DNA of 64,000 bases, taken from contig JBAYHW010000001.1 of the NCBI GenBank assembly GCA_041665925.1, forward strand, positions 166,685-230,684. The letters run 5' to 3'. Position numbers and translations under genes: made by a program. How positions within the stretch are numbered: the first letter of the stretch is position 1; every line of letters begins with the position of its first letter. The notes beneath the pieces were generated by a model that saw nothing but the letters and a program-made list of their open reading frames with translations, was not told the origin of the DNA and did no database searches. The DNA is from Minisyncoccota bacterium (GTDB taxonomy: Bacteria > Patescibacteriota > Minisyncoccia > Phycocordibacterales > UBA9973). Positions 39,199 through 49,718 of the stretch are shown one piece after another.

Positions 39199-40914
39199 AT
39201 GGAAAAGGAAATAAAAAATTTAATAAAAGATGCGCTTCAGAATCTGACAATAGAGGTAAGCGATATTGTGCTTGAGCATCCTGAAGATTTAAAGCATGGA
39301 GATTATTCTACAAATGTAGCTTTAGCTATTGCGAAAAATATTGGAGAAAACCCGAAGACTTTAGCAGAAAAAATAGCCAAAGAGCTAGAGAGATTAAATG
39401 TAGACAATAATATTGAAAAAGTTGAAGTAGCTGGTTCTGGTTTTATAAATTTTTATTTATCTAGGAAATTTTTTAGCAGGAATATTGAAGAAATTTTAAA
39501 TCAAGGTAACAGTGTCGGTAAAAACGAAATATTTTCCGGTAAAAAAATAATGGTGGAATACACTGACCCGAATCCTTTTAAGCCAGTACATATCGGGCAC
39601 ATCATGACCAATGCGATAGGGGAATCAATCGCTAGAATCCTCGAGCATTCCGGTGCAGAAATTTCACGAGCCAACTACCAGGGCGACATAGGGCTACACG
39701 TGGCGAAAGCTATCTATGGACTTTTAAAAGATACTAAGCTTCAAGATAAGTCCGGTTCACACAATCTCCAAGCGACGAATATCGGGGCAGCGTATGTGCT
39801 CGGGGCTGAAGCTTATGAAAATGACGAAAATGCGAAAAAAGAAATTGAAGAAATAAATAAAAAGATTTATGCTCGTGATGATAAAAAAATAAATGAGATC
39901 TATGATTGGGGCTTTAAGGCAACGATGGAAGCTTTCGAAGATTTATATAAAATTCTCGGAACAAAATTCGACTATTACTTTTTAGAAAGTGCCATGGCAG
40001 ATATCGGCAGGGACGTGGTCAATGCAAATACTGGTGAAATTTTCGAAGAGTCCGACGGGGCTTTAGTTTTTAAAGCAGAAAAACACAATCCTAAACTCCA
40101 TACCCGAGTTTTCATCACTTCTAAAGGTTTACCTACCTACGAAGCGAAAGAGTTAGGTTTAGCTCTGGAGAAGTTTAAAACGGAGCCAAATATGGATTTA
40201 TCTATAGTCATCACCGCCAACGAGCAAGCTGACTATATGCGGGTGGTGGCGAAAGCTCTTTCACTAATCCACCCAGAATATGAAAATAAAATGTTGCATA
40301 TTACGCACGGGATGATGCGCCTGGCTTCCGGCAAGATGTCTTCGAGGAAGGGTAATGTTGTGACGGGGGAAGCCCTGCTTAGAGACACTATCGAGCTTGT
40401 GTCAGAAAGGCTGAAAGATAGAGAATGGAATGAGGAAGAAAAAAATAAAGTTGCAGAAGTTGTCGGGGTCGCAGCGCTTAAATATTCCATATTAAAACAA
40501 TCTACCGGTGGAGATATTATTTATGATTTTGATAAATCTATTTCCTTCGAAGGAGACTCGGGCCCATACCTCGCGTATTCTCATGCCCGAGCGAATTCCA
40601 TTTTAGAAAAAGCGCAAAAAGAAAATATTTTACCAAGTTTTGAAGTTTTGCCTGATGAAACTTTCGAAATAGAAAAATTATTATATAAATTTTCTGAAGT
40701 TGTTCTTCGTTCTGCTTCCGAATATGAACCCCACTATGTTGCAAATTATTTAATCGAAATCGCTCGTGCCTTTAACAGTTTTTACGGGAACAACGTAATC
40801 GTAAACAAAGACGACCCAGCTTCTGCGTATAAAGTAGCTCTTACTTACGCATTTACTTTCATAATAAAAAACGGCCTCCACCTCCTCGGCATCACCGCTC
40901 CCACAAAAATGTAG
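39199..40914 (+). CDS. argS: arginyl-tRNA synthetase
   Basis: Class I HIGH (PVHIGHIM), KMSSRKG, and a DALR anticodon-binding C-terminus. Confidence 0.9.
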   Translation: MEKEIKNLIKDALQNLTIEVSDIVLEHPEDLKHGDYSTNVALAIAKNIGENPKTLAEKIAKELERLNVDNNIEKVEVAGSGFINFYLSRKFFSRNIEEILNQGNSVGKNEIFSGKKIMVEYTDPNPFKPVHIGHIMTNAIGESIARILEHSGAEISRANYQGDIGLHVAKAIYGLLKDTKLQDKSGSHNLQATNIGAAYVLGAEAYENDENAKKEIEEINKKIYARDDKKINEIYDWGFKATMEAFEDLYKILGTKFDYYFLESAMADIGRDVVNANTGEIFEESDGALVFKAEKHNPKLHTRVFITSKGLPTYEAKELGLALEKFKTEPNMDLSIVITANEQADYMRVVAKALSLIHPEYENKMLHITHGMMRLASGKMSSRKGNVVTGEALLRDTIELVSERLKDREWNEEEKNKVAEVVGVAALKYSILKQSTGGDIIYDFDKSISFEGDSGPYLAYSHARANSILEKAQKENILPSFEVLPDETFEIEKLLYKFSEVVLRSASEYEPHYVANYLIEIARAFNSFYGNNVIVNKDDPASAYKVALTYAFTFIIKNGLHLLGITAPTKM

Positions 40915-40952
40915 ACTATACAAGCATTTTTATTAACTAGCGATTTTTGTAC

Positions 40953-40988
40953 ATTCCCCCATTTACGCCATGGCGTAAATGGGGGAAT
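40953..40988. repeat. 36-bp perfect palindrome ATTCCCCCATTTACGCCATGGCGTAAATGGGGGAAT
   Basis: Left 18 nt is the exact reverse complement of the right 18 nt. The right arm plus ATAG recurs at 41386-41409. Confidence 0.9.
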
Positions 40989-41004
40989 AGGATATAATTA
41001 ATGT

Positions 41005-41397
41005 ATGCACAACCAAAAGCAGAAATTTTACAAAGGGGTAAGGGTTAATTCTTTTGGAATTCCCATTTTTACTAAAAACAGAACAAGTCGTTCGAAAAAA
41101 CAAAATAGGAAAAGAGTATTTTATCACAGCACTTTCGCTTCTTCTTTTAAGAAAACTGATCCTAAAAATCTTATCATTATGTACGACATACCCCATAGTC
41201 AAAAAAAAGAGAGAGATTGGTTTCGTCGGCAATTAATAAAGTTTGATTACGTTATGATACAGAAAAGTGTTTGGGTCGGCCCTTCGCCCTTGCCCAAAGA
41301 TTTTCTTGATTATTTGAAAGAAATTAAAATAGGGGATAATTTTAAAACCTTTAAATTGGCAAAATCCTATAATTCCCTCATATCAGCCATGGCGTAA
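41005..41397 (+). CDS. Cas2-like (type II Cas2 / VapD fold) small protein, orphan; possible N-terminal extension (alternative start 41179)
   Basis: LIIMYDIPHSQKKERDWFRRQLIKFDYVMIQKSVWVG closely parallels S. pyogenes/S. thermophilus Cas2 [39 protein letters not shown]. No cas1 or cas9 lies nearby. The stop codon falls inside the second repeat copy. Confidence 0.5.
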   Translation: MHNQKQKFYKGVRVNSFGIPIFTKNRTSRSKKQNRKRVFYHSTFASSFKKTDPKNLIIMYDIPHSQKKERDWFRRQLIKFDYVMIQKSVWVGPSPLPKDFLDYLKEIKIGDNFKTFKLAKSYNSLISAMA

Positions 41398-41409
41398 ATG
41401 GGGGAATAG
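41386..41409. repeat. direct repeat GCCATGGCGTAAATGGGGGAATAG (second copy)
   Basis: Identical 24 nt to 40965-40988. Together they bracket the cas2-like ORF. Confidence 0.9.
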
Positions 41410-41445
41410 TTTTCCACAGTTTTGCTAGGGCTTCTTTAAATTTAT

Positions 41446-44400
41446 GTGATAATTAATTGCATGAAGAAACTCTTATTGTTTGTTTTTGTGTTAAGTATTT
41501 TTGTACCAAAATTTGTATTTGCGGAAACTTATACTGGGGATATTTACATAAATAGTACTGGAGGAGGTAATTGTACTACCATTGGTGTTTGGGACGATGA
41601 AACTAAAACTTGCACTTTTACTAAAGATCTTTTTGGTCCATTGACCATTGGTTCAGTTGGTATTACCATCGATGGTGCAGGCCATACTATGTCCAGAGAT
41701 ACTCAAGCTGCTTTTTTTCAAAGAAATGGAATGACTGTAGGTGGATCAAATTTTGTTTTAAAAAATATTAATGTTAAAGGTTTCACAAACTGCATTATTT
41801 TTAATAATGGTACAATAAATAGCCGTGTGGAGAATTCTACTATTTCTTCCTGTGGCAGTTATGGAATTTACCTACCTGTTTCTTCCGGGGGACATATTTT
41901 TTTAAATAATAATTTTAATCAAAACTTTCTTGGAATTTTTGTAAATTCGTCCAACAATACAATTGAAGGCAACATATTTTCTGCAAATAATACTTATGGA
42001 ATAAGAATAAACAATGCCTCAAACAATATTATCAAAAATAATATTTTAATTGGGAATTTTACAGGAATTCGTTTTGAATATGGTACGGGAAATAGAATTA
42101 CAGAAAATACTATAGAAAATAGCAAGTCTTATGGTTTGTATGCAATTGGTTCTGGGGTAAACCAAAATTATGTTGTAAATAATAATTTTATTAATAATCG
42201 AGATGGACAAGCTTATACATATCAAATCCAATTGTCTGATGTGTCACCAATTGGTGGTAATTATTGGAGTGATTATGATGCGCCGAGCGAAGGATGTAAT
42301 GATTTAAATATTGATAGTATTTGTGATCAACCAAAATACTTGAACCCATACGATCTTTCGTATGGAGACTTTTATCCTTGGGTGAGGAGAGATGGCTGGA
42401 AAACTGACCCTCCAACCTGTTTTGATGGAATAAAAAATCAAGATGAAACTGATATTGATGAAGGTGGAGTATGCAAAGTCCTTAGCTCCGAAAAATCAAT
42501 CGTTTCGTTTAGTTTTGACAATTTAACACCAAAGGTTGTGGGTGTTATTAATGAAGCTGATCACACCATTTCTGCTACTGTTCCTTTCGGTATTGGTCTC
42601 ACAGATCTTATTCCAAGCATAGCTGTTTCAGCGGGAGCATCTGTTAATCCAGAGAATGGTACTTCTCAAAATTTTACTAATACTGTAATGTACAATGTTA
42701 CAGCAGAGGACAAATCAACTCAGGAATACGCAGTTACAGTGACTTCGTCTTGTACTGTTGATTGCTTTTCTAGTGTGCTTTTTTTGCCCGGACTTGAATC
42801 TAGTAGGCTATACACAAACAGAGAAAGTGGGAGTGAAGATCAACTCTGGGAGCCAAATACAAATAGCGACGTGGAGGATTTATATTTAAACACCGATGGA
42901 ACAAGTAAAAATTTAAATATTTATACGAGAGATATTATAAAAGAAACAAATGTTCCAATCCCCGTTGGTTCGGCGGGGCAAAATATTTATAAAAGTTTTT
43001 CGGCGATGATGGATGTATTGTTTGATGATCATAAAATTGCTGAGTGGAAAGAGTTTGCTTATGATTGGCGGCAAGACGTGCAAGATATTATTGAAAATGG
43101 AACAAAATACCAGAATGAAAATAAATCGCTTGTCGCTACACTGCAAGCTCTAGTCGATTCTTCTAAAAATGGCAAAGTCACAATCGTGGCGCACAGCAAT
43201 GGAGGATTGATTGCGAAAGCTCTTTTGAATAAATTACAAGATGATAAAATCGCAGGAATAAATAATTTGATTGATAATATTGATGTGCTTATTTTAGTAG
43301 CTGTACCAGAAATAGGGACTGCGAGTGCTGTGCCTGCGGTGCTGCATGGGTATAAACAAAATCTAATGGGCGGTTTACTTATGGACGAGGCGCATGCTCG
43401 AGAGCTGGGGAGAAATATGATTAGTGCTTTTGGACTTTTGCCAAGTAGGGAATATCTAAATAGGGTCAATGCTTCACCGGCAACTTTTGTGGATACTGTA
43501 ATTCCTTCAAATGTGACAACGAAACTTGTGCAGGCATTCGGGAGTGCTATCAGTTCTTATGATGAATATAAAGATTTCCTATTTGGAAGAGAGGGGAGAA
43601 CAGAGCCGACAATAAATCAAATAAATTTGCCTATTAGCTTATCACAAGATTTATTTACTAAAGCAGAGACTTTGCATAATATTATCGATGAGTGGGTGCC
43701 ACCAGAGAGTCTGCGGGTTGTAGAAGTCGCAGGGTGGGGGCTAGACACTATTGCAAGCTTTGAATATTACCCAAAGATATGCACACAATCGCTTAATTGT
43801 GGTTTCACAATGGACGAAAGGCCTCGCTTTACAGCAAACGGAGACGGAACCGTTGTAGTGCCTAGCGCTCAATATATGAGTGTTGCTGATAATGCGGAAA
43901 AGTACTGGGTAGATTTAAATAGATATAATCAGCTTCAGTTTTCAAGGACAAAACACGCTTCTATTTTAGAAGTAACTTCACTTTTGGATTTTATTTCAAA
44001 CACGATTCAAGAAATAATACCTAGTGACTCTCCATATTTATCTACTACCGAACCACTAGATACATCAAATCGCTTTTATATTTCTATTCACTCACCAGTA
44101 ACTCTAGATGCTTTTGACACAGAAGGAAATCATACTGGTAAAATTTGTCCAACTAACTCAGACTTTTGTTATGTAGAAGAAAATATTCCGAATTCATCAT
44201 ATTTACAATTTGGAGAAGGAAAATACCTTAATCTCAGAGAAGAGCAAATGTTTAAAGTTAAACTTCAGGGTACAGACGTAGGAACATTTACTTATGAGTC
44301 AGAAAAAGTCTTACCTGATGGGACATCCACCACGTCCTCATTCGTAGATATCCCTGTGACGATACAAACACAAGCAGAGATAACATTAAATGTTAATACT

Positions 44401-44757
44401 CAAACACCTGAGTTAAAATTAGATGTGACTGGAGACGGAGTTTCTGATTTTACTATTACACCTAATGATACCTTTGACCCAATATTATATTTACAAATTA
44501 TGAAAGCCACGATTGATTCGCTGGACATTAGTCCATCTAAGATTAAAGATTTCGATAAAAAAGTAGACAATGTAATAAAGGAGATTAAAAAAGGGAAAAC
44601 AAACAAAGCACAATTAAAAATAGAAAAATTTAAGAGTTATTTCACTAAAACATTATCCAAGCCAGATCCAAAGAAACCAAAACCTAATAAAATATCTAAA
44701 GCTGATGCACAGCTCCTGCTTGATATGTTGAACAAATTATTAGATAATTTAAAATAA
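41446..44757 (+). CDS. secreted multidomain protein: NosD-like parallel beta-helix, Ig-like domain, alpha/beta-hydrolase (lipase-like)
   Basis: Signal peptide; PbH1 repeats (NNxIxxN, GIRINNASNNIIKNN) ending in the GGNYWSDY...DSICDQPKY tail; VAHSNGG nucleophile-elbow motif in the C-terminal half. Confidence 0.65.
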   Translation: MIINCMKKLLLFVFVLSIFVPKFVFAETYTGDIYINSTGGGNCTTIGVWDDETKTCTFTKDLFGPLTIGSVGITIDGAGHTMSRDTQAAFFQRNGMTVGGSNFVLKNINVKGFTNCIIFNNGTINSRVENSTISSCGSYGIYLPVSSGGHIFLNNNFNQNFLGIFVNSSNNTIEGNIFSANNTYGIRINNASNNIIKNNILIGNFTGIRFEYGTGNRITENTIENSKSYGLYAIGSGVNQNYVVNNNFINNRDGQAYTYQIQLSDVSPIGGNYWSDYDAPSEGCNDLNIDSICDQPKYLNPYDLSYGDFYPWVRRDGWKTDPPTCFDGIKNQDETDIDEGGVCKVLSSEKSIVSFSFDNLTPKVVGVINEADHTISATVPFGIGLTDLIPSIAVSAGASVNPENGTSQNFTNTVMYNVTAEDKSTQEYAVTVTSSCTVDCFSSVLFLPGLESSRLYTNRESGSEDQLWEPNTNSDVEDLYLNTDGTSKNLNIYTRDIIKETNVPIPVGSAGQNIYKSFSAMMDVLFDDHKIAEWKEFAYDWRQDVQDIIENGTKYQNENKSLVATLQALVDSSKNGKVTIVAHSNGGLIAKALLNKLQDDKIAGINNLIDNIDVLILVAVPEIGTASAVPAVLHGYKQNLMGGLLMDEAHARELGRNMISAFGLLPSREYLNRVNASPATFVDTVIPSNVTTKLVQAFGSAISSYDEYKDFLFGREGRTEPTINQINLPISLSQDLFTKAETLHNIIDEWVPPESLRVVEVAGWGLDTIASFEYYPKICTQSLNCGFTMDERPRFTANGDGTVVVPSAQYMSVADNAEKYWVDLNRYNQLQFSRTKHASILEVTSLLDFISNTIQEIIPSDSPYLSTTEPLDTSNRFYISIHSPVTLDAFDTEGNHTGKICPTNSDFCYVEENIPNSSYLQFGEGKYLNLREEQMFKVKLQGTDVGTFTYESEKVLPDGTSTTSSFVDIPVTIQTQAEITLNVNTQTPELKLDVTGDGVSDFTITPNDTFDPILYLQIMKATIDSLDISPSKIKDFDKKVDNVIKEIKKGKTNKAQLKIEKFKSYFTKTLSKPDPKKPKPNKISKADAQLLLDMLNKLLDNLK

Positions 44758-44758
44758 T

Positions 44759-45139
44759 ATGAAAAAAATAGTAAGTTTGTTTTCTCTTTTTTTGTCCATT
44801 TTTATATTTGCATGGTTGAGATATTACGGAGAATCAGCAGTATACAATTATCACGTGGCTTACGTTGTTGAATACTTGTTTTATTGGGGTGTCGTTGTGT
44901 TTATACTGAGCTTGTTTGCATTTATGCTTAATAATGCAAAATACAAAGTATGGTTTTTCATTACCATATTATTCATGGTTATATCTATTTTGTTTACATA
45001 TAGCGTAGACGAGAATGACGTACTTTTTAGTGGTCAATACGTTATTTTATTGTTAATTGGGCTATATTCTTTTGTTTCTATAATTTATTTTCTTGTTCAA
45101 TTTTTAAAAAATAAAAAACAACCTAGTTTTGTGGAATAA
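44759..45139 (+). CDS. small integral membrane protein
   Basis: 126 aa with four predicted TM helices. Confidence 0.5.
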   Translation: MKKIVSLFSLFLSIFIFAWLRYYGESAVYNYHVAYVVEYLFYWGVVVFILSLFAFMLNNAKYKVWFFITILFMVISILFTYSVDENDVLFSGQYVILLLIGLYSFVSIIYFLVQFLKNKKQPSFVE

Positions 45140-45157
45140 ACTAGCAAAAAGTTATAC

Positions 45158-45182
45158 ACCTCGGGAGGGGTGCTTTTTTGAG
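45158..45182 (+). terminator. intrinsic terminator
   Basis: GCACC TCGGGAG GGGTGC followed by TTTTTT. Confidence 0.55.
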
Positions 45183-45185
45183 ATA

Positions 45186-45207
45186 AGCGTATGATGGGGG
45201 TGAATAG
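45186..45207. repeat. degenerate third copy of the GCGTAAATGGGGGAATAG motif
   Basis: AGCGTATGATGGGGGTGAATAG at the left edge of the GC-rich island. A related palindromic remnant TTCCCATTGAATGGGGGAA is at 45600-45618. Confidence 0.5.
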
Positions 45208-45221
45208 AAAAAGGGGGAATC

Positions 45222-45389
45222 ATGTACGATGGTGGGTACCCGCTGGTTGGTGTTTGTGAGGACTGCGGAGAAGAGGGCTCGACGTGGTGTGAGGAATTTT
45301 TCCTCGACGTGTGTCTCGTCTGCAAGATAAAGAGACAAGAACAAGCAGCCGAGAGAAGGAAGATGTTCACATCGCAAATGCCTGAGTGA
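45222..45389 (+). CDS. small DksA/TraR-type C4 zinc-finger protein (55 aa)
   Basis: GGGGG Shine-Dalgarno site 6 nt upstream of the ATG. CEDCGEE...CLVC with a following basic/Gln-rich tail resembles the TraR/DksA C4 finger. GC-rich codons. Confidence 0.5.
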   Translation: MYDGGYPLVGVCEDCGEEGSTWCEEFFLDVCLVCKIKRQEQAAERRKMFTSQMPE

Positions 45390-45406
45390 TGCGGGCAGGA
45401 GGAATT

Positions 45407-45610
45407 ATGAATGGTTGCTGTCTTTGCAATCAGGCATTCAATGCCTACCTCCCTGGCCGTTCGCCTAAATCCATGTGGATTTATCAGGCAGAGAAGTTGC
45501 CTGTCCACGAGTCCTGTGGGAGGAGGCTAGCGGTAAAAATCGAAGAACTTGTGAACGAGGACGCGCAGCAGGCATTCATGGGTCCAATTCTGAGAAGAAT
45601 TTCCCATTGA
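45407..45610 (+). CDS. small Cys-rich protein (67 aa)
   Basis: AGGAGG Shine-Dalgarno site upstream; CCLC...HESC cysteine pairs; GC-rich. Confidence 0.4.
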   Translation: MNGCCLCNQAFNAYLPGRSPKSMWIYQAEKLPVHESCGRRLAVKIEELVNEDAQQAFMGPILRRISH

Positions 45611-45736
45611 ATGGGGGAAGGAACATCGCGGGCGTTCACGTTGGACGCCCGTTTCTTTTTGAGAAAAGTTATGCACCTTGCGAGAGGTGTGTTTTATTTT
45701 TAGGCGTATAATTATAGAGAATCGCAGGAGGAAATC

Positions 45737-45985
45737 GTGAGCATCAGTATCAGTTCAATGCTCGCACAGTGTGTGGTGTGCGAGCGACCCATCCCAGAAA
45801 AAGAGGAGGCTAAAAACTTCGAAGGTCGCCAAGTGTGCTCGAGCTGTACGATCGAGCGCGCCGAAAGTAAGGTGACTGGTGAGGTTCTTCTCTTTCTTCG
45901 CGAAGAAGCAGTGGCGAAGCTTCGCGAATTGGTGTTGAGTCGCCACGACAATCACGACGACGGAGGGTTACATCCCCTCAGGTAA
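45737..45985 (+). CDS. small DksA/TraR-type C4 zinc-finger protein (82 aa, GTG start)
   Basis: Extended -10 and AGGAGG upstream. CVVCERPIPEKEEAKNFEGRQVCSSC fits the Cx2Cx18Cx2C spacing with the PIPE motif of TraR/DksA. Confidence 0.6.
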   Translation: MSISISSMLAQCVVCERPIPEKEEAKNFEGRQVCSSCTIERAESKVTGEVLLFLREEAVAKLRELVLSRHDNHDDGGLHPLR

Positions 45986-46017
45986 GCGGGGCCGCTTAAG
46001 CGCCCCGCCTTTTTTTT
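45986..46017 (+). terminator. strong intrinsic terminator
   Basis: GCGGGGC-N9-GCCCCGC followed by T8. Confidence 0.7.
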
Positions 46018-46019
46018 CA

Positions 46020-46040
46020 ACAAAGATGGTGCTATAATCT
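46020..46040 (+). promoter_or_regulatory. extended -10 promoter (TGCTATAAT) for the ileS leader
   Basis: TGnTATAAT at 46030-46038. Confidence 0.5.
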
Positions 46041-46044
46041 TTTT

Positions 46045-46222
46045 ACAAGCGTAGAAGGGGCCCCGTCCGAATAATCCGGGCAGGCATCACCCCTGAGCTT
46101 TGGGAAGAAAACCGCAAGGTGAGTAGAACCCGGTGTTATGAGAAGTAACCAAGGTGGTACCACGGGGAAACTCGTCCTTGAATTATAACTATGGTTGTAA
46201 TTTGAGGACGAGTTTTTTATAT
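46045..46222 (+). promoter_or_regulatory. T-box riboswitch leader, Ile (AUC) specifier, with terminator/antiterminator
   Basis: AACCAAGGTGGTACCACGGGG (46147-46167) matches the T-box consensus with the UGGU bulge. Terminator CTCGTCCT...AGGACGAG + T6 at 46171-46218. ATCA sits just 5' of the closing CCCC of stem I at 46086-46089. Confidence 0.7.
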
Positions 46223-46223
46223 T

Positions 46224-49200
46224 ATGAGCGAAGAAAATACAAATAAATCTGAAGCAGCTTTGCGAGAAGAGCGTATTTTGCAATTTTGGCGCGAGCACAA
46301 AACTTTTGAAAAATCTTTAGCTAAAAAGTCTCCAAAAGGGCACTATGTCTTTTACGATGGGCCACCATTTGCGACAGGGCATATACACTACGGGCACATT
46401 TTAGGCAGTACGGTGAAAGACGTTATCGGCAGATATAAAACTATGCAAGGGTATTATGTGCCGAGAGTCTGGGGCTGGGATTGCCACGGGTTACCTATTG
46501 AGAACATCGTTGAGAAAGAATTAAATATTGCCGGACACAAAGAAATTGAAAAATTAGGTATTGATAAATTTGTGGAGTATGCGCGAAGTAAAGTTCTGCA
46601 ATATGATAAAGATTGGGAAAAGGGGATAGAACGCATCGGGCGCTGGGTAGACTTCCCAGGAGGATATAAGACCATGGACAACACCTTCATTGAGTCCGTA
46701 TGGTGGGCCTTGTCAGAATTTAATAAAAGAAATCTTATTTACGAAGGAGTAAGAGTACTTGCGTATTGTCCGAGATGTGAGACACCGATTGCTAACTCTG
46801 AAATCGCGATGGACAACAGCTATAAAGATATCTCTGATATTTCCGTGTATGTGAAATTTGAGCTTGAGGATGAACCCGGTACGTATCTCTTAGCTTGGAC
46901 GACGACGCCCTGGACGCTCCCTGGGAATACGGCTATCGCTATAAATAAAAACATTGTTTATGTGAAAGTAAAAACCGCCGAGGGAATTTTCATCCTTGCT
47001 AAAGAGACAGTTCCAAACGTTTTAAAAGACAAAGAACACACAGTTTTAGCCGAAGTAAAAAGCGAAGATTTAGTTGGTAAGAAATATAAACCAGTTTTCC
47101 CATATTATCAGAATACTGATGTGGCGAAAAATAAAAATATTTGGCGAGTGTGGCATGCGGACTTCGTAACCATAGAAAAAGGGACAGGAATAGCCCACGA
47201 AGCTCCAGCCTTCGGGGAAGATGATATGAACCTAGCTAAGCAGAATAGTATTCCGTGGATTATCCATGTGGATGAGACTGGAAGATTTAAAACAGAAGTT
47301 ATTGATTTCGCTGGGCAACTTGTAAAACCAAAATCTGCAGAAAAAGATGGGCACCAAAAAGCGGATATTGAAATTATAAAATATTTAGCTAAGGCCAATC
47401 TTCTTTTCGCAAAAGAAAAGATAATTCACTCATACCCTCATTGCATGCGTTGCGAAACGCCGATAATATACTACGCCCTGCCATCTTGGTTTATCAATAT
47501 ACAGAAAGTCAAAGGAAATATTCTTAAACAAGCTAGATACATAAACTGGATTCCTTCACACTTAAAAGAAGGAAGATTTAGAAATATTGCAGAAAATGCA
47601 CCAGACTGGAACATTTCCAGGAATAGGTATTGGGCGAGCCCGTTACCTATTTGGAAATGTGAACAATGTAAAAAACAAACCTTCATCAGTTCCTTAGAAG
47701 ACTTAAAAAACAAAACAAAAAAGTCTGGCAATAAATATTTCGTAATGCGACACGGACAAGCTGAAAACAATGTCACCGATGCGCACAGTAGGGACTTAGA
47801 AATTAATGCCAAATTAACTGAAGTGGGGAGAGGGCAAGTTTTAGATAGTGCTAAAAATATCAAAGATAAAATTGATGTCGTTATCTCTTCTCCATTTAAT
47901 CGGGCAAAAGAGACGATGGAAATAGTGTGTGAGCAAATTGGTTTCCCTGTTGGGAATGTTACATATGATGACAGAATTAGAGAATGGGAAACAAGCACGA
48001 TTTTCGAAGGAAAAGATCGAGCTATTGTGGACAAATATTATGAATTAGACTACTTAGATAATCCGGCAGAGATTCTGGCAGAGGGAGAAAGCTTTGCTCA
48101 AGTGGTAAAACGAGTAGGGCAATTTATCTATGACATAGAGACTAAATATTCAGGCAAAAATATTTTGATTGTTGGGCACGGGGGAGCTACTCAAGCATTG
48201 TGCTTCGTCGTTAAGGGGACGTCTTTTGATTTATTATCCAGCAAAACTAATCCATTTCCGGAATTAAAAAATGCAGAAATAAAAAAACTGGATTTTGTAC
48301 CCCTTCCGCATAATGCTAACTATGAGCTTGATTTACACCGACCGTATATAGATGATGCGGCTCTTGTTTGTGATTGTGGCGCAGACTTAGAACGTATTCC
48401 AGAAGTCTTGGATTGCTGGTTTGAGTCTGGCTCTATGCCATTTGCGCAAGACCACTATCCATTTGAAAATAAAGCTTGGCAGAAAAATAATTTTCCGGCT
48501 GGATTCGTGGCGGAATACATAGGACAGGTTAGAACTTGGTTCTATTACACACACACAGTTTCGACTGTCTTGTTTAACCACACTCCGTTTAAAAATATTG
48601 TCTCTACGGGGACAGTTAGAGCTTCCGACGGTGAGAAAATGTCTAAATCTAAGCACAATTATCCTGACCCGTGGATATTTATAGATAAATACGGGGTGGA
48701 TGCATTGCGTCTCTACTTGATGTCTTCTACATTAATGAAGGGAGAGGATGCCAACTTCTCAGAAAAAACTGTGCAAGAAATTTCGAGTAAAATAGTCGGA
48801 AGACTTTTCAATGTCCTAGCCTTTTATGAGCTCTATCGAGATAAAGAACTAGAAACGGATTATGCCCCAAAATCAAAAAAAATTCTAGATAAATGGATTT
48901 TAGCCAGGTTCTATCAAACACTTAGTGAAATCACTAAAGGCATGGAGAAATACGATATGGCTGAGGCGACGAGGCCCATAGACTTACTAGTGGAAGATAT
49001 TTCTACTTGGTATTTACGACGTTCTCGTGATCGAATTAAAGATGGAGATAGGGAATCGAAGCAAACACTGTATTTCTTATTAAAAAATTTAGCGAGAACG
49101 CTTGCCCCCTTCGCTCCGTTTATGGCTGAAGATATGTGGAGAACATTGAAGAATGATAATGATCCTGAAAGCGTGCATTTAACCAGCTGGCCAAAGAAAA

Positions 49201-49718
49201 GGTTTAGTATTTTTTCTTTTGGTAAACAGAAAATTATGGAAAAAATGGGGACAGTCAGAAGTATCGTGACCTTGGGCTTAGAGGCGAGACAGAAAGCGGG
49301 GATAAAAGTTCGCCAACCATTAAATCACCTAGCTATTGTTGCCGAAGGACTGATGGATGAATACCTTGAAATCATAAAGGATGAGTTAAATATCAAAAAT
49401 ATCTCTTATCTGTTAAAAATAAAATTAGGTATCAGTAAAGTGAACTTGGATACGAATATTACCGAAGAATTAAAACTTGAGGGTGATTATCGTGAGCTGG
49501 TGCGGGCTCTGCAAGACCTAAGAAAGAAAATAGGGCTTACTCCGAGCGACGTCGTAGCACTTATCTTTGAAACAAGCGAAATAGGCAAAAAACTTATTCA
49601 AAAATTCGAAAACGATATGAAGAAAACTGTGCTAGTGTCCAAAATAGAATTTAAAGAAAATGATGGGGAAGAAGTCAAAATAGACGAACTTGATTTCAAA
49701 GTAAAAATAGAAAAATAA
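46224..49718 (+). CDS. ileS: isoleucyl-tRNA synthetase with an inserted histidine-phosphatase (PGAM/SixA-like) domain
   Basis: HYGHIL (HIGH), KMSKS, CP1 editing domain, and the Zn motif WKCEQCKK. About 205 aa (nt ~47700-48330) containing FVMRHGQ, ISSPFNRAKET, and LIVGHGG are inserted between the Zn knuckle and DLHRPYID. Total length 1164 aa. Confidence 0.9.
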   Translation: MSEENTNKSEAALREERILQFWREHKTFEKSLAKKSPKGHYVFYDGPPFATGHIHYGHILGSTVKDVIGRYKTMQGYYVPRVWGWDCHGLPIENIVEKELNIAGHKEIEKLGIDKFVEYARSKVLQYDKDWEKGIERIGRWVDFPGGYKTMDNTFIESVWWALSEFNKRNLIYEGVRVLAYCPRCETPIANSEIAMDNSYKDISDISVYVKFELEDEPGTYLLAWTTTPWTLPGNTAIAINKNIVYVKVKTAEGIFILAKETVPNVLKDKEHTVLAEVKSEDLVGKKYKPVFPYYQNTDVAKNKNIWRVWHADFVTIEKGTGIAHEAPAFGEDDMNLAKQNSIPWIIHVDETGRFKTEVIDFAGQLVKPKSAEKDGHQKADIEIIKYLAKANLLFAKEKIIHSYPHCMRCETPIIYYALPSWFINIQKVKGNILKQARYINWIPSHLKEGRFRNIAENAPDWNISRNRYWASPLPIWKCEQCKKQTFISSLEDLKNKTKKSGNKYFVMRHGQAENNVTDAHSRDLEINAKLTEVGRGQVLDSAKNIKDKIDVVISSPFNRAKETMEIVCEQIGFPVGNVTYDDRIREWETSTIFEGKDRAIVDKYYELDYLDNPAEILAEGESFAQVVKRVGQFIYDIETKYSGKNILIVGHGGATQALCFVVKGTSFDLLSSKTNPFPELKNAEIKKLDFVPLPHNANYELDLHRPYIDDAALVCDCGADLERIPEVLDCWFESGSMPFAQDHYPFENKAWQKNNFPAGFVAEYIGQVRTWFYYTHTVSTVLFNHTPFKNIVSTGTVRASDGEKMSKSKHNYPDPWIFIDKYGVDALRLYLMSSTLMKGEDANFSEKTVQEISSKIVGRLFNVLAFYELYRDKELETDYAPKSKKILDKWILARFYQTLSEITKGMEKYDMAEATRPIDLLVEDISTWYLRRSRDRIKDGDRESKQTLYFLLKNLARTLAPFAPFMAEDMWRTLKNDNDPESVHLTSWPKKRFSIFSFGKQKIMEKMGTVRSIVTLGLEARQKAGIKVRQPLNHLAIVAEGLMDEYLEIIKDELNIKNISYLLKIKLGISKVNLDTNITEELKLEGDYRELVRALQDLRKKIGLTPSDVVALIFETSEIGKKLIQKFENDMKKTVLVSKIEFKENDGEEVKIDELDFKVKIEK

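Follow-up and report, generated by a model that had tools for sequence, protein, structure and literature searches.

The window analysed here, a 64-kb stretch of a MEGAHIT metagenome contig of 194 kb (European Nucleotide Archive (ENA) ERZ27249449, k141_1314271) from a Candidatus Nomurabacteria bacterium (Patescibacteria), contains a small GC-rich island between a gene for a membrane protein of 126 amino acids (44759-45139) and ileS (46224-49718). The question raised by this locus is what the island encodes and where it came from, an initial annotation having described it as horizontally acquired phage or conjugative-element cargo with DksA/TraR-type zinc fingers. The reading favoured here, to which a probability of about 0.68 is assigned, is that of a lineage-restricted, compositionally foreign islet made of two autonomous moron-like units, which encode orphan zinc-ribbon microproteins on the plus strand. 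The term moron designates an independent transcription unit with its own promoter and terminator (PMC3594210). The feature singled out by the initial annotation is itself real, although it was over-interpreted there on three points, which are the DksA/TraR label, the recency of the insertion and a supposed link to a repeat of the nearby cas2-like locus.

The compositional contrast is sharp. The GC content climbs from 0.26-0.31 to 0.48-0.55 between the membrane-protein gene and ileS, and over the interval 45184-46017 it amounts to 0.508, the peak of the window (mean 0.385 and standard deviation 0.032 in windows of 834 nucleotides), so that the GC-rich island previously noticed is borne out. All three of the plus-strand open reading frames (ORFs) listed before, of 55, 67 and 82 amino acids, were recovered. 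Their GC contents at the first, second and third codon positions (GC1/2/3) are 0.54/0.41/0.59 for ORF1, 0.51/0.43/0.54 for ORF2 and 0.61/0.40/0.59 for ORF3, and the GC1>GC2<GC3 periodicity present in each of them is coding-like, with GC3 far over the value of the host, whose genes average 0.48/0.35/0.32 and have a GC3 of 0.32 +/- 0.04 with a maximum of 0.38. Additionally, cysteine accounts for 6.4% of the residues in the three ORF products versus 0.97% in host proteins.

The translation signals also set the island apart. ORF2 and ORF3 are preceded by a perfect AGGAGG Shine-Dalgarno (SD) site, whereas a survey of 46 host genes found a 6-nucleotide SD in none of them, a 5-nucleotide SD in three and no SD at all in 26. 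The previous claim that each ORF has a near-perfect SD, rare elsewhere, therefore stands for these two ORFs and does not extend to ORF1, upstream of which just GGGGG/AAGG is found. In several host genes (for example at 554, 17742, 41005, 51405 and, on the minus strand, 4709), the start codon lies 7-8 nucleotides after a GnTATAAT box, which suggests that leaderless or SD-independent initiation is widespread in this Nomurabacteria genome.

The island consists of two transcription units and is not a three-gene tandem, because a third terminator (hairpin 45628-45652) and a leader repeat, both overlooked when the three ORFs were described as tandem, divide it. The leader, of 47 nucleotides, is present twice in the window (45149-45195 and 45666-45712, with 0.01 expected by chance) and has no other copy there. 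It is laid out as a box, AAAAGTTATRCACCT, followed by a 6-base-pair hairpin with a GNRA loop and a T-run, and then by a -10 box located 28 nucleotides after the first box. The -10 boxes are of the GnGTATRAT type and resemble host GnTATAAT promoters, such as the TGCTATAAT found before the T-box of ileS, and an SD and a start codon follow about 25 nucleotides past each of them. Unit A comprises ORF1 and, 17 nucleotides on, ORF2, and ends at the terminator T1, while unit B comprises ORF3, whose stop codon abuts the terminator T2. Each unit is thus provided with its own predicted promoter and its own terminator; in all, the island has two conserved leaders, each with a predicted -10 box, and three terminators made of a hairpin and a U-run. 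The hairpins reported at both flanks (45157-45172 with its T-run and 45986-46008 with T8) do fold, and the left one would shield the island from the membrane-protein gene that lies upstream. The box of leader A may be an UP-element-like or a regulator-binding site. The coordinates of these features are collected in the table.

Features of the GC-rich island and of the adjoining ileS leader, in window coordinates
Feature	Coordinates	Strand	Basis or remark
Leader box A, AAAAAGTTATACACCT	45146..45161	+	Invariant in four leader copies of two genomes; its end lies 28 nt before the -10 box
Hairpin CACCTC-GGGA-GGGGTG (45157-45172) with T-run, terminator-like	45157..45179	+	Folding; 16/16 identical in genome B
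Predicted -10 TATGAT (GCGTATGAT) of unit A	45190..45195	+	Reading of the sequence; same position in all four leaders; putative
ORF1, 55 aa, acidic (pI 4.5), predicted zinc ribbon C12, C15, C31, C34, then predicted C-terminal helix	45222..45389	+	Sole ORF with a diverged homologue
SD of ORF2, AGGAGG	45397..45402	+	4 nt before ATG
ORF2, 67 aa from ATG (74 aa from GTG 45386), C4/C5, C7 ... H34, C37	45407..45610	+	ORF list, motif reading
Terminator T1, 11-bp GC-rich stem (hairpin 45628-45652) with U-run	45628..45660	+	Folding; kept in genome B
Leader box B (AAAAGTTATGCACCT) with hairpin CACCTT-GCGA-GAGGTG	45664..45692	+	Box kept in genome B, 3' arm of the hairpin not kept
Predicted -10 TATAAT (GCGTATAAT) of unit B	45707..45712	+	Reading of the sequence; same position in four leaders; putative
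SD of ORF3, AGGAGG	45726..45731	+	5 nt before GTG
ORF3, 82 aa, GTG start, N-terminal C4 finger C12, C15, C34, C37 (CVVCERPIPE...), predicted helix 48-70, acidic/His tail	45737..45985	+	
Terminator T2, hairpin 45986-46008 with T8	45986..46017	+	Folding
Promoter of ileS (TGCTATAAT) and T-box leader with terminator hairpin	46030..46215	+	Context, outside the island

When JGI metagenome contigs were scanned for the leader motif, one was found, Ga0172379_10001079, referred to here as genome B. It is the closest known relative, and its island is identical in four assemblies (one from ENA, two from JGI and one from Logan). The identity between the host and genome B is 70-91% for housekeeping proteins (argS 70.5%, ileS 80%, RecO 83% and, for a class II aminoacyl-tRNA synthetase with tRNA-synt_2b and HGTP_anticodon domains, 89%) and 88% for the cas2-like gene. 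The order around the island in the host is argS, the cas2-like gene, a beta-helix/LCAT gene, the membrane-protein gene, the island and the T-box-led ileS, and genome B is syntenic, its beta-helix/LCAT protein being only 26% identical, its small membrane protein unrelated and its island again GC-rich (GC 0.43-0.54 versus 0.21-0.40 around it). Because genome B holds a homologous GC-rich island in the same place, that of the host is not a recent private insertion, and it probably predates the split of the two lineages. Therefore, from the description of a horizontally acquired insertion, the foreign composition (GC3 of 0.54-0.59 versus 0.32) is retained and the recency is not. Both sister genomes also occur in the same sample assembly, ERZ27249449, as contig A (194 kb) and contig B (352 kb), and B is base-identical over the island in three other datasets.

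Between these sister islands the scaffold is conserved and the cargo turns over. Identity is about 92% in the core of leader A, with all 16 positions of its hairpin matching, and 74% over T1 and leader B; a G.U to G-C change preserves the pairing of the T1 stem, whose loop differs. None of the four leaders deviates in the box AAAAGTTATNCACCT or in the distance from it to the -10 box. ORF2, on the other hand, has no counterpart in genome B, and the slot of ORF3 is occupied there by non-homologous small GC-rich ORFs, one of them called by IMG (55 amino acids, MRCHFCGEEFHIW...HDHH, GC1/2/3 of 0.68/0.32/0.59) and another encoding a basic Cys-containing product, also of 55 amino acids. For a possible paralogy of ORF1 with the CHFCGEE...W ORF of genome B, or with ORF2, hhalign returned E 0.016 and 0.05 over 14-19 columns, too little to establish it.

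ORF1 is very likely real as a coding gene. Its homologue in genome B has 56 amino acids and 45% identity (tblastn E 1.5e-11; phmmer E 6.7e-7), with length and stop position preserved, and the pair shows identities of 0.62/0.65/0.44 at the three codon positions, a non-synonymous divergence (dN) of 0.44 and saturated synonymous divergence (dS). Among the putative ligands, Cys12, Cys15 and Cys31 are kept and Cys34 is replaced by His, while the non-ligand Cys23 is replaced by Val. As judged from this alignment, the pattern is the signature of a translated, presumptive metal-binding protein read in the plus-strand frame. The four genome-B contigs have no single-nucleotide polymorphisms within the island, hence no population-level dN/dS is available. 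Antisense ORFs of 118 and 79 amino acids were rejected as candidates, considering that conservation would be lowest at their first codon position and that all signals lie on the plus strand.

ORF2 and ORF3 are probably real as coding genes as well, and the case for them is indirect because neither has a diverged homologue. It is made by the SD spacing, by stop codons near the terminators, by the GC periodicity and by the Cx2C...[C/H]x2C motif, and for ORF2 also by an IMG call, an identical product (called with 73 amino acids) being found on an independent JGI contig of 238 kb from the same organism. The Cys-rich character of the ORFs and the Cx2C-x18-Cx2C spacing of ORF3 were correctly described before; ORF1 has Cx2C-x15-Cx2C and ORF2 also has Cx2C...Hx2C. 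All three products are thus small proteins dominated by two Cx2C (or C/H) knuckles, and from these ligand motifs they would be expected to bind zinc. The AlphaFold2 (AF2) models of ORF1 and ORF3, with a predicted local distance difference test score (pLDDT) of 61 and 66, respectively, consist of zinc knuckles followed by a helix.

In the RNA polymerase-binding proteins DksA and TraR the finger has Cx2C-x17-Cx2C spacing, and ahead of it lies the active part, an acidic-tipped N-terminal helix or coiled coil that enters the secondary channel of RNA polymerase. According to the corresponding explanation, the island would be recently acquired phage or conjugative cargo, and ORF1 and ORF3 would be DksA/TraR-type binders of that channel. 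ORF3 does share with the family (PF01258; F-plasmid and phage TraR, Escherichia coli DksA) the four cysteines, C..C..PIPE at the TraR offset and a helix after the finger, and it is small like TraR and has a composition suggesting accessory origin. Its finger, CVVCERPIPE-x12-CSSC, aligns in three comparisons: with PHROG 54 'DksA-like zinc-finger protein' (E 0.23), with NCBIfam NF008243 (13.2 bits against a cut-off of 96, E 0.09) and, by BLASTP, with a sequence of F-plasmid TraR entered by hand (11/26 identities, single-pair E 3e-4). The foreign-looking composition and SD usage of the island point in the same direction.

However, membership in the DksA/TraR family fails on the testable features. 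All scores stay far under the curated thresholds: ORF1 aligns with PF01258 over just 10 residues and scores 12.2 bits, where the cut-off is 24.9, and ORF3 has no match to that family. The fingers of ORF1 and ORF3 are N-terminal, and because only 11 residues precede the first cysteine in each of them, there is no helix or coiled coil with an acidic tip to reach the secondary channel; the AF2 models likewise lack an N-terminal helix. The cysteine spacing, which decides neither way, is off by one residue in ORF3 (x18, so that a one-residue gap is needed to align TraR) and by two in ORF1 (x15). Neither DksA nor TraR is among the PDB sequence or Foldseek matches, and Foldseek returns generic LIM, ZZ and RING fingers instead. 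Additionally, no relative was found by tblastn, even at E<=1, in 50,697 INPHARED phage and 72,556 PLSDB plasmid records, collections rich in TraR genes, and the sister species has the island at the same locus, so the insertion is not recent. This explanation is therefore considered very improbable, and the assignment of ORF1 and ORF3 to the DksA/TraR finger could not be upheld. The resemblance of the 26-residue finger of ORF3 to TraR appears local and sub-significant, a possible lead and not evidence of membership, and the DksA/TraR label should stay out of the annotation.

Searches for relatives were equally negative elsewhere. In a word-indexed search of 5.8 billion protein clusters ORF1 and ORF3 had no match and ORF2 matched only the identical protein, and a full phmmer search of ORF1 against 1.84 billion representatives gave the genome-B homologue as its single match. 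No relative was revealed in IMG/VR viral sequences by the three ORFs, by an alignment of ORF1, by two ORFs of genome B or by two patterns for the leader, blastn against the INPHARED and PLSDB records gave nothing, and a scan of JGI metagenome contigs with the concatenated ORFs had no match. The ORFs are absent from the ileS neighbourhoods of 80 related species, in which conservation of the intergenic region is limited to its T-box part and no GC-rich stretch comparable to the island occurs in the argS-ileS interval; an unrelated match of seven amino acids, 'GVCEDCG', falls within the coding sequence of a glycyl-tRNA synthetase in locus L022. Pfam, PHROGs, NCBIfam and PADLOC assigned no significant family to the ORFs, PDB sequence searches gave no match and Foldseek with the two AF2 models gave nothing significant. 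The attribution to phage or conjugative-element cargo thus found no backing in IMG/VR, INPHARED or PLSDB. The loose leader pattern gave six matches to two distinct sequences in IMG/VR, approximately the number expected by chance, one of them inside a giant-virus gene. The other, on the 40-kb viral contig IMGVR_UViG_3300020045_008807 (L091, 3380-3428), is an intergenic 17-mer, AAAAAGTTATGCACCTT, equal to leader box B, 29 nucleotides upstream of a GGTATAAT box before a queE-like radical-SAM gene of the phage; the contig has nothing else in common with the island.

Three other explanations were weighed against the islet reading. In AT-rich genomes, structured RNA genes typically stand out as GC-rich patches, and the regions of ORF2 and/or ORF3 could be primarily structured non-coding or dual-function RNA in which the ORFs are fortuitous. 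The plus-strand RNA of 45300-46100 folds beyond dinucleotide shuffles (z -2.1 to -4.3 in eight consecutive 200-nucleotide windows, exceeding the minus strand), partly outside the terminators, as in 45300-45599 (z -2.5 and -3.0) and 45700-45899 (z -3.6), and ORF2 and ORF3 have no homologues, ORF length is indecisive and the source gene caller is blank here. On the other hand, no Rfam 15 family was found within 45140-46017 at gathering thresholds, permissive filters with E<=10 giving chance-level microRNA, small nucleolar RNA and small RNA matches far below threshold. In genome B, furthermore, the excess of structure is confined to terminators and leaders, with coding parts at z of about 0, and the sequences of ORF2 and ORF3 are not kept, other ORFs occupying the slot. 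The AGGAGG sites 4-5 nucleotides before the starts, the stops abutting terminators, the GC periodicity, the Cx2C...[C/H]x2C motif in both ORFs and the codon-level signature of ORF1 also make an RNA-level explanation unlikely.

The absence of a detectable function, the patchy content (ORF2 present or absent, unit B cargo differing) and the location in an argS-ileS interval that ranges from 10 bp to 5.3 kb among relatives could also be taken to indicate a decaying, functionless remnant of a mobile element, with the ORFs as relics. This is improbable, considering that ORF1 keeps its frame, length and metal ligands, with divergence highest at third positions and synonymous sites saturated, that leaders and T1 are conserved far beyond neutral intergenic DNA at approximately 80% housekeeping protein identity, that GC3 has not decayed toward the host in either lineage, and that neither an integrase nor an att-like repeat nor any other mobile-element gene adjoins the island. 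An assembly chimera, which a MEGAHIT metagenome assembly with an abrupt change of composition might suggest, is effectively refuted, since both flanks belong to one syntenic Nomurabacteria block, ORF2 is identical on the independent 238-kb contig and the island of genome B is the same in its four assemblies.

Several observations nevertheless weigh against the islet reading itself. The source annotation has no genes in 45140-46223, leaving a gap of 1.1 kb, and ORF length is weak evidence, as at least three ORFs of at least 50 amino acids arise in 4.8% of dinucleotide shuffles and an ORF coverage as high as that observed in 1%. The translation of ORF2 and ORF3, without a diverged homologue, is argued from signals and composition, and the plus-strand folding described above bears on these same regions. 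The confidence of the AF2 models is low (pLDDT 61-66), and some predicted CxxC fingers hold no metal, a matter that AF2 cannot settle (PMC11241148). Since the homologue searches found no donor, phage or plasmid relative, it is the composition that argues for a foreign origin. Finally, GC3 is still 0.55-0.6 in both lineages despite the saturated synonymous sites of ORF1 and a host GC3 of 0.32, which is unexplained by a simple, old horizontal transfer followed by amelioration. It suggests either that nucleotide composition or mRNA structure is under selection or that the sequence has repeatedly been replaced from a source richer in GC.

Under the islet reading, each unit would start with the invariant box and, usually, the GNRA-loop hairpin and T-run, would be transcribed from the GnGTATRAT -10 box 28 nucleotides on, and would continue with a 5' untranslated region of about 20 nucleotides containing an SD, the coding sequence and a strong GC-rich intrinsic terminator. 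Each product would be a microprotein with a single zinc-ribbon or zinc-knuckle domain (Cx2C ... [C/H]x2[C/H]) and a helix behind it. The islet would have been present in the common ancestor of the host and genome B, with leaders and T1 under purifying selection and a cargo that is either fast-evolving (ORF1, 45% versus approximately 80% for housekeeping proteins) or exchanged (ORF2 present or absent, unit B non-homologous). The proteins may function as small metal-dependent modules that bind either another protein or a nucleic acid, and the rapid turnover beside a hypervariable secreted beta-helix/lipase gene suggests that their role is accessory or related to conflict. Strong SD sites would plausibly be needed because GC-rich, structured mRNAs cannot use the SD-less or leaderless initiation of the host.

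A bolder version, regarded as rather unlikely, would see the locus as a fixed 'expression platform' at the ileS hotspot, into which GC-rich, SD-led cassettes for zinc-finger microproteins are repeatedly swapped, or in which selection actively upholds the GC-richness of these cassettes against the strong AT bias of the genome. It is considered because the cargo is non-homologous and yet equally GC-rich, ORF2 is present or absent together with its own SD, the leaders outlast the coding sequences and GC3 is unameliorated. If true, a Patescibacteria episymbiont would here have a small locus of cassette exchange or of fast-evolving conflict, with translation signals foreign to the remainder of its genome.

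As read here, the islet resembles phage morons and genomic islets in that its units are independent, with their own predicted promoter and their own terminator, are extra with respect to related genomes (absent from the ileS loci of the 80 related species, present at the same site in genome B) and deviate in GC content. However, it lies outside any recognisable prophage, has no phage relative in the collections searched, occupies the same chromosomal site in two species, and keeps its leader/terminator scaffold while changing its cargo. Single-domain zinc-finger microproteins are known from haloarchaea (PMC6562870, PMC11241148), and the likeness extends to a size below 85 amino acids, to what is essentially one Cx2C...Cx2C module (CEDCG in ORF1, CHFCG in a 55-amino-acid ORF of genome B) and to a mostly orphan status with regulatory or unassigned functions; the island ORFs differ in being bacterial, in having no sequence relationship to them and in being clustered in an aberrant islet with dedicated signals. 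The top Foldseek match of the ORF1 model is CsfB (Gin), the anti-sigma-G/E factor of Bacillus subtilis (PDB 5n7y), which is also a zinc-binding protein of about 50 amino acids, but the match is non-significant (E 3, probability 0.10) and comes from the model with pLDDT 61, so that it serves as an analogy only. Patescibacteria genomes are tiny and their accessory genes mostly unexplained, and the locus provides a clean case of orphan microprotein genes overlooked by standard callers. At present it is a well-documented orphan islet and not a new mechanism; if expressed, its products would be candidate small zinc-dependent regulators or conflict factors of an episymbiont, and the pattern of conserved scaffold and variable cargo would merit a wider survey.

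Regarding the setting, the best matches of the host ileS to GTDB species representatives are 72-77% identical. No phage gene is found among the neighbours argS, cas2-like, beta-helix/LCAT, membrane protein and ileS, and no CRISPR array or tandem repeat occurs within the window. The degenerate copy of the 24-bp repeat of the cas2-like locus, previously placed at the left edge of the island, turned out to be just a 14-mer with three mismatches (45209-45222), of a kind found 13 times in the window versus 8.9 +/- 2.8 by chance. The cas2-like gene (41005-41397) encodes a PaaX_M/Cas2-like protein of 130 amino acids (Pfam PaaX_M E 5e-13, Cas2 E 3e-7) and is bracketed by a perfect 36-nucleotide palindrome, ATTCCCCCATTTACGCCATGGCGTAAATGGGGGAAT (40953-40988), and a copy with 89% identity (41372-41409). 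Its 88% identity in genome B falls to 29-48% in other relatives, where it is located downstream of ileS in all loci but one.

The argS-ileS interval as a whole (40914-46224 in the window; loci L002-L081 in relatives) is a gene-content hotspot in Nomurabacteria and Paceibacteria, and in this clade it holds the hypervariable secreted beta-helix/LCAT-lipase protein (26% identity between the sisters, whose ileS is 80% identical) together with unrelated small membrane proteins. The position directly upstream of the ileS leader was correctly given before, as a probable T-box that is kept in relatives adjoins the island. This leader (46043-46215) scores 34.2 bits (E 1.4e-5) against Rfam RF00230, whose gathering score is 93, with the full model spanned; it contains the GGUGGUACC motif followed by a terminator hairpin, and blastn shows its conservation in more than 20 related loci. 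The isoleucyl-tRNA synthetase encoded downstream (46224-49718) has an inserted histidine-phosphatase domain (His_Phos_1), and that of genome B (L083, 11029-15000) is also fused to a downstream HD-domain protein, reaching 1323 amino acids. Inside ileS, at 47500-47799, 200-nucleotide windows fold far beyond shuffles on both strands (z -4.5 and -3.2), which is the sole such outlier in the flanking coding sequence.

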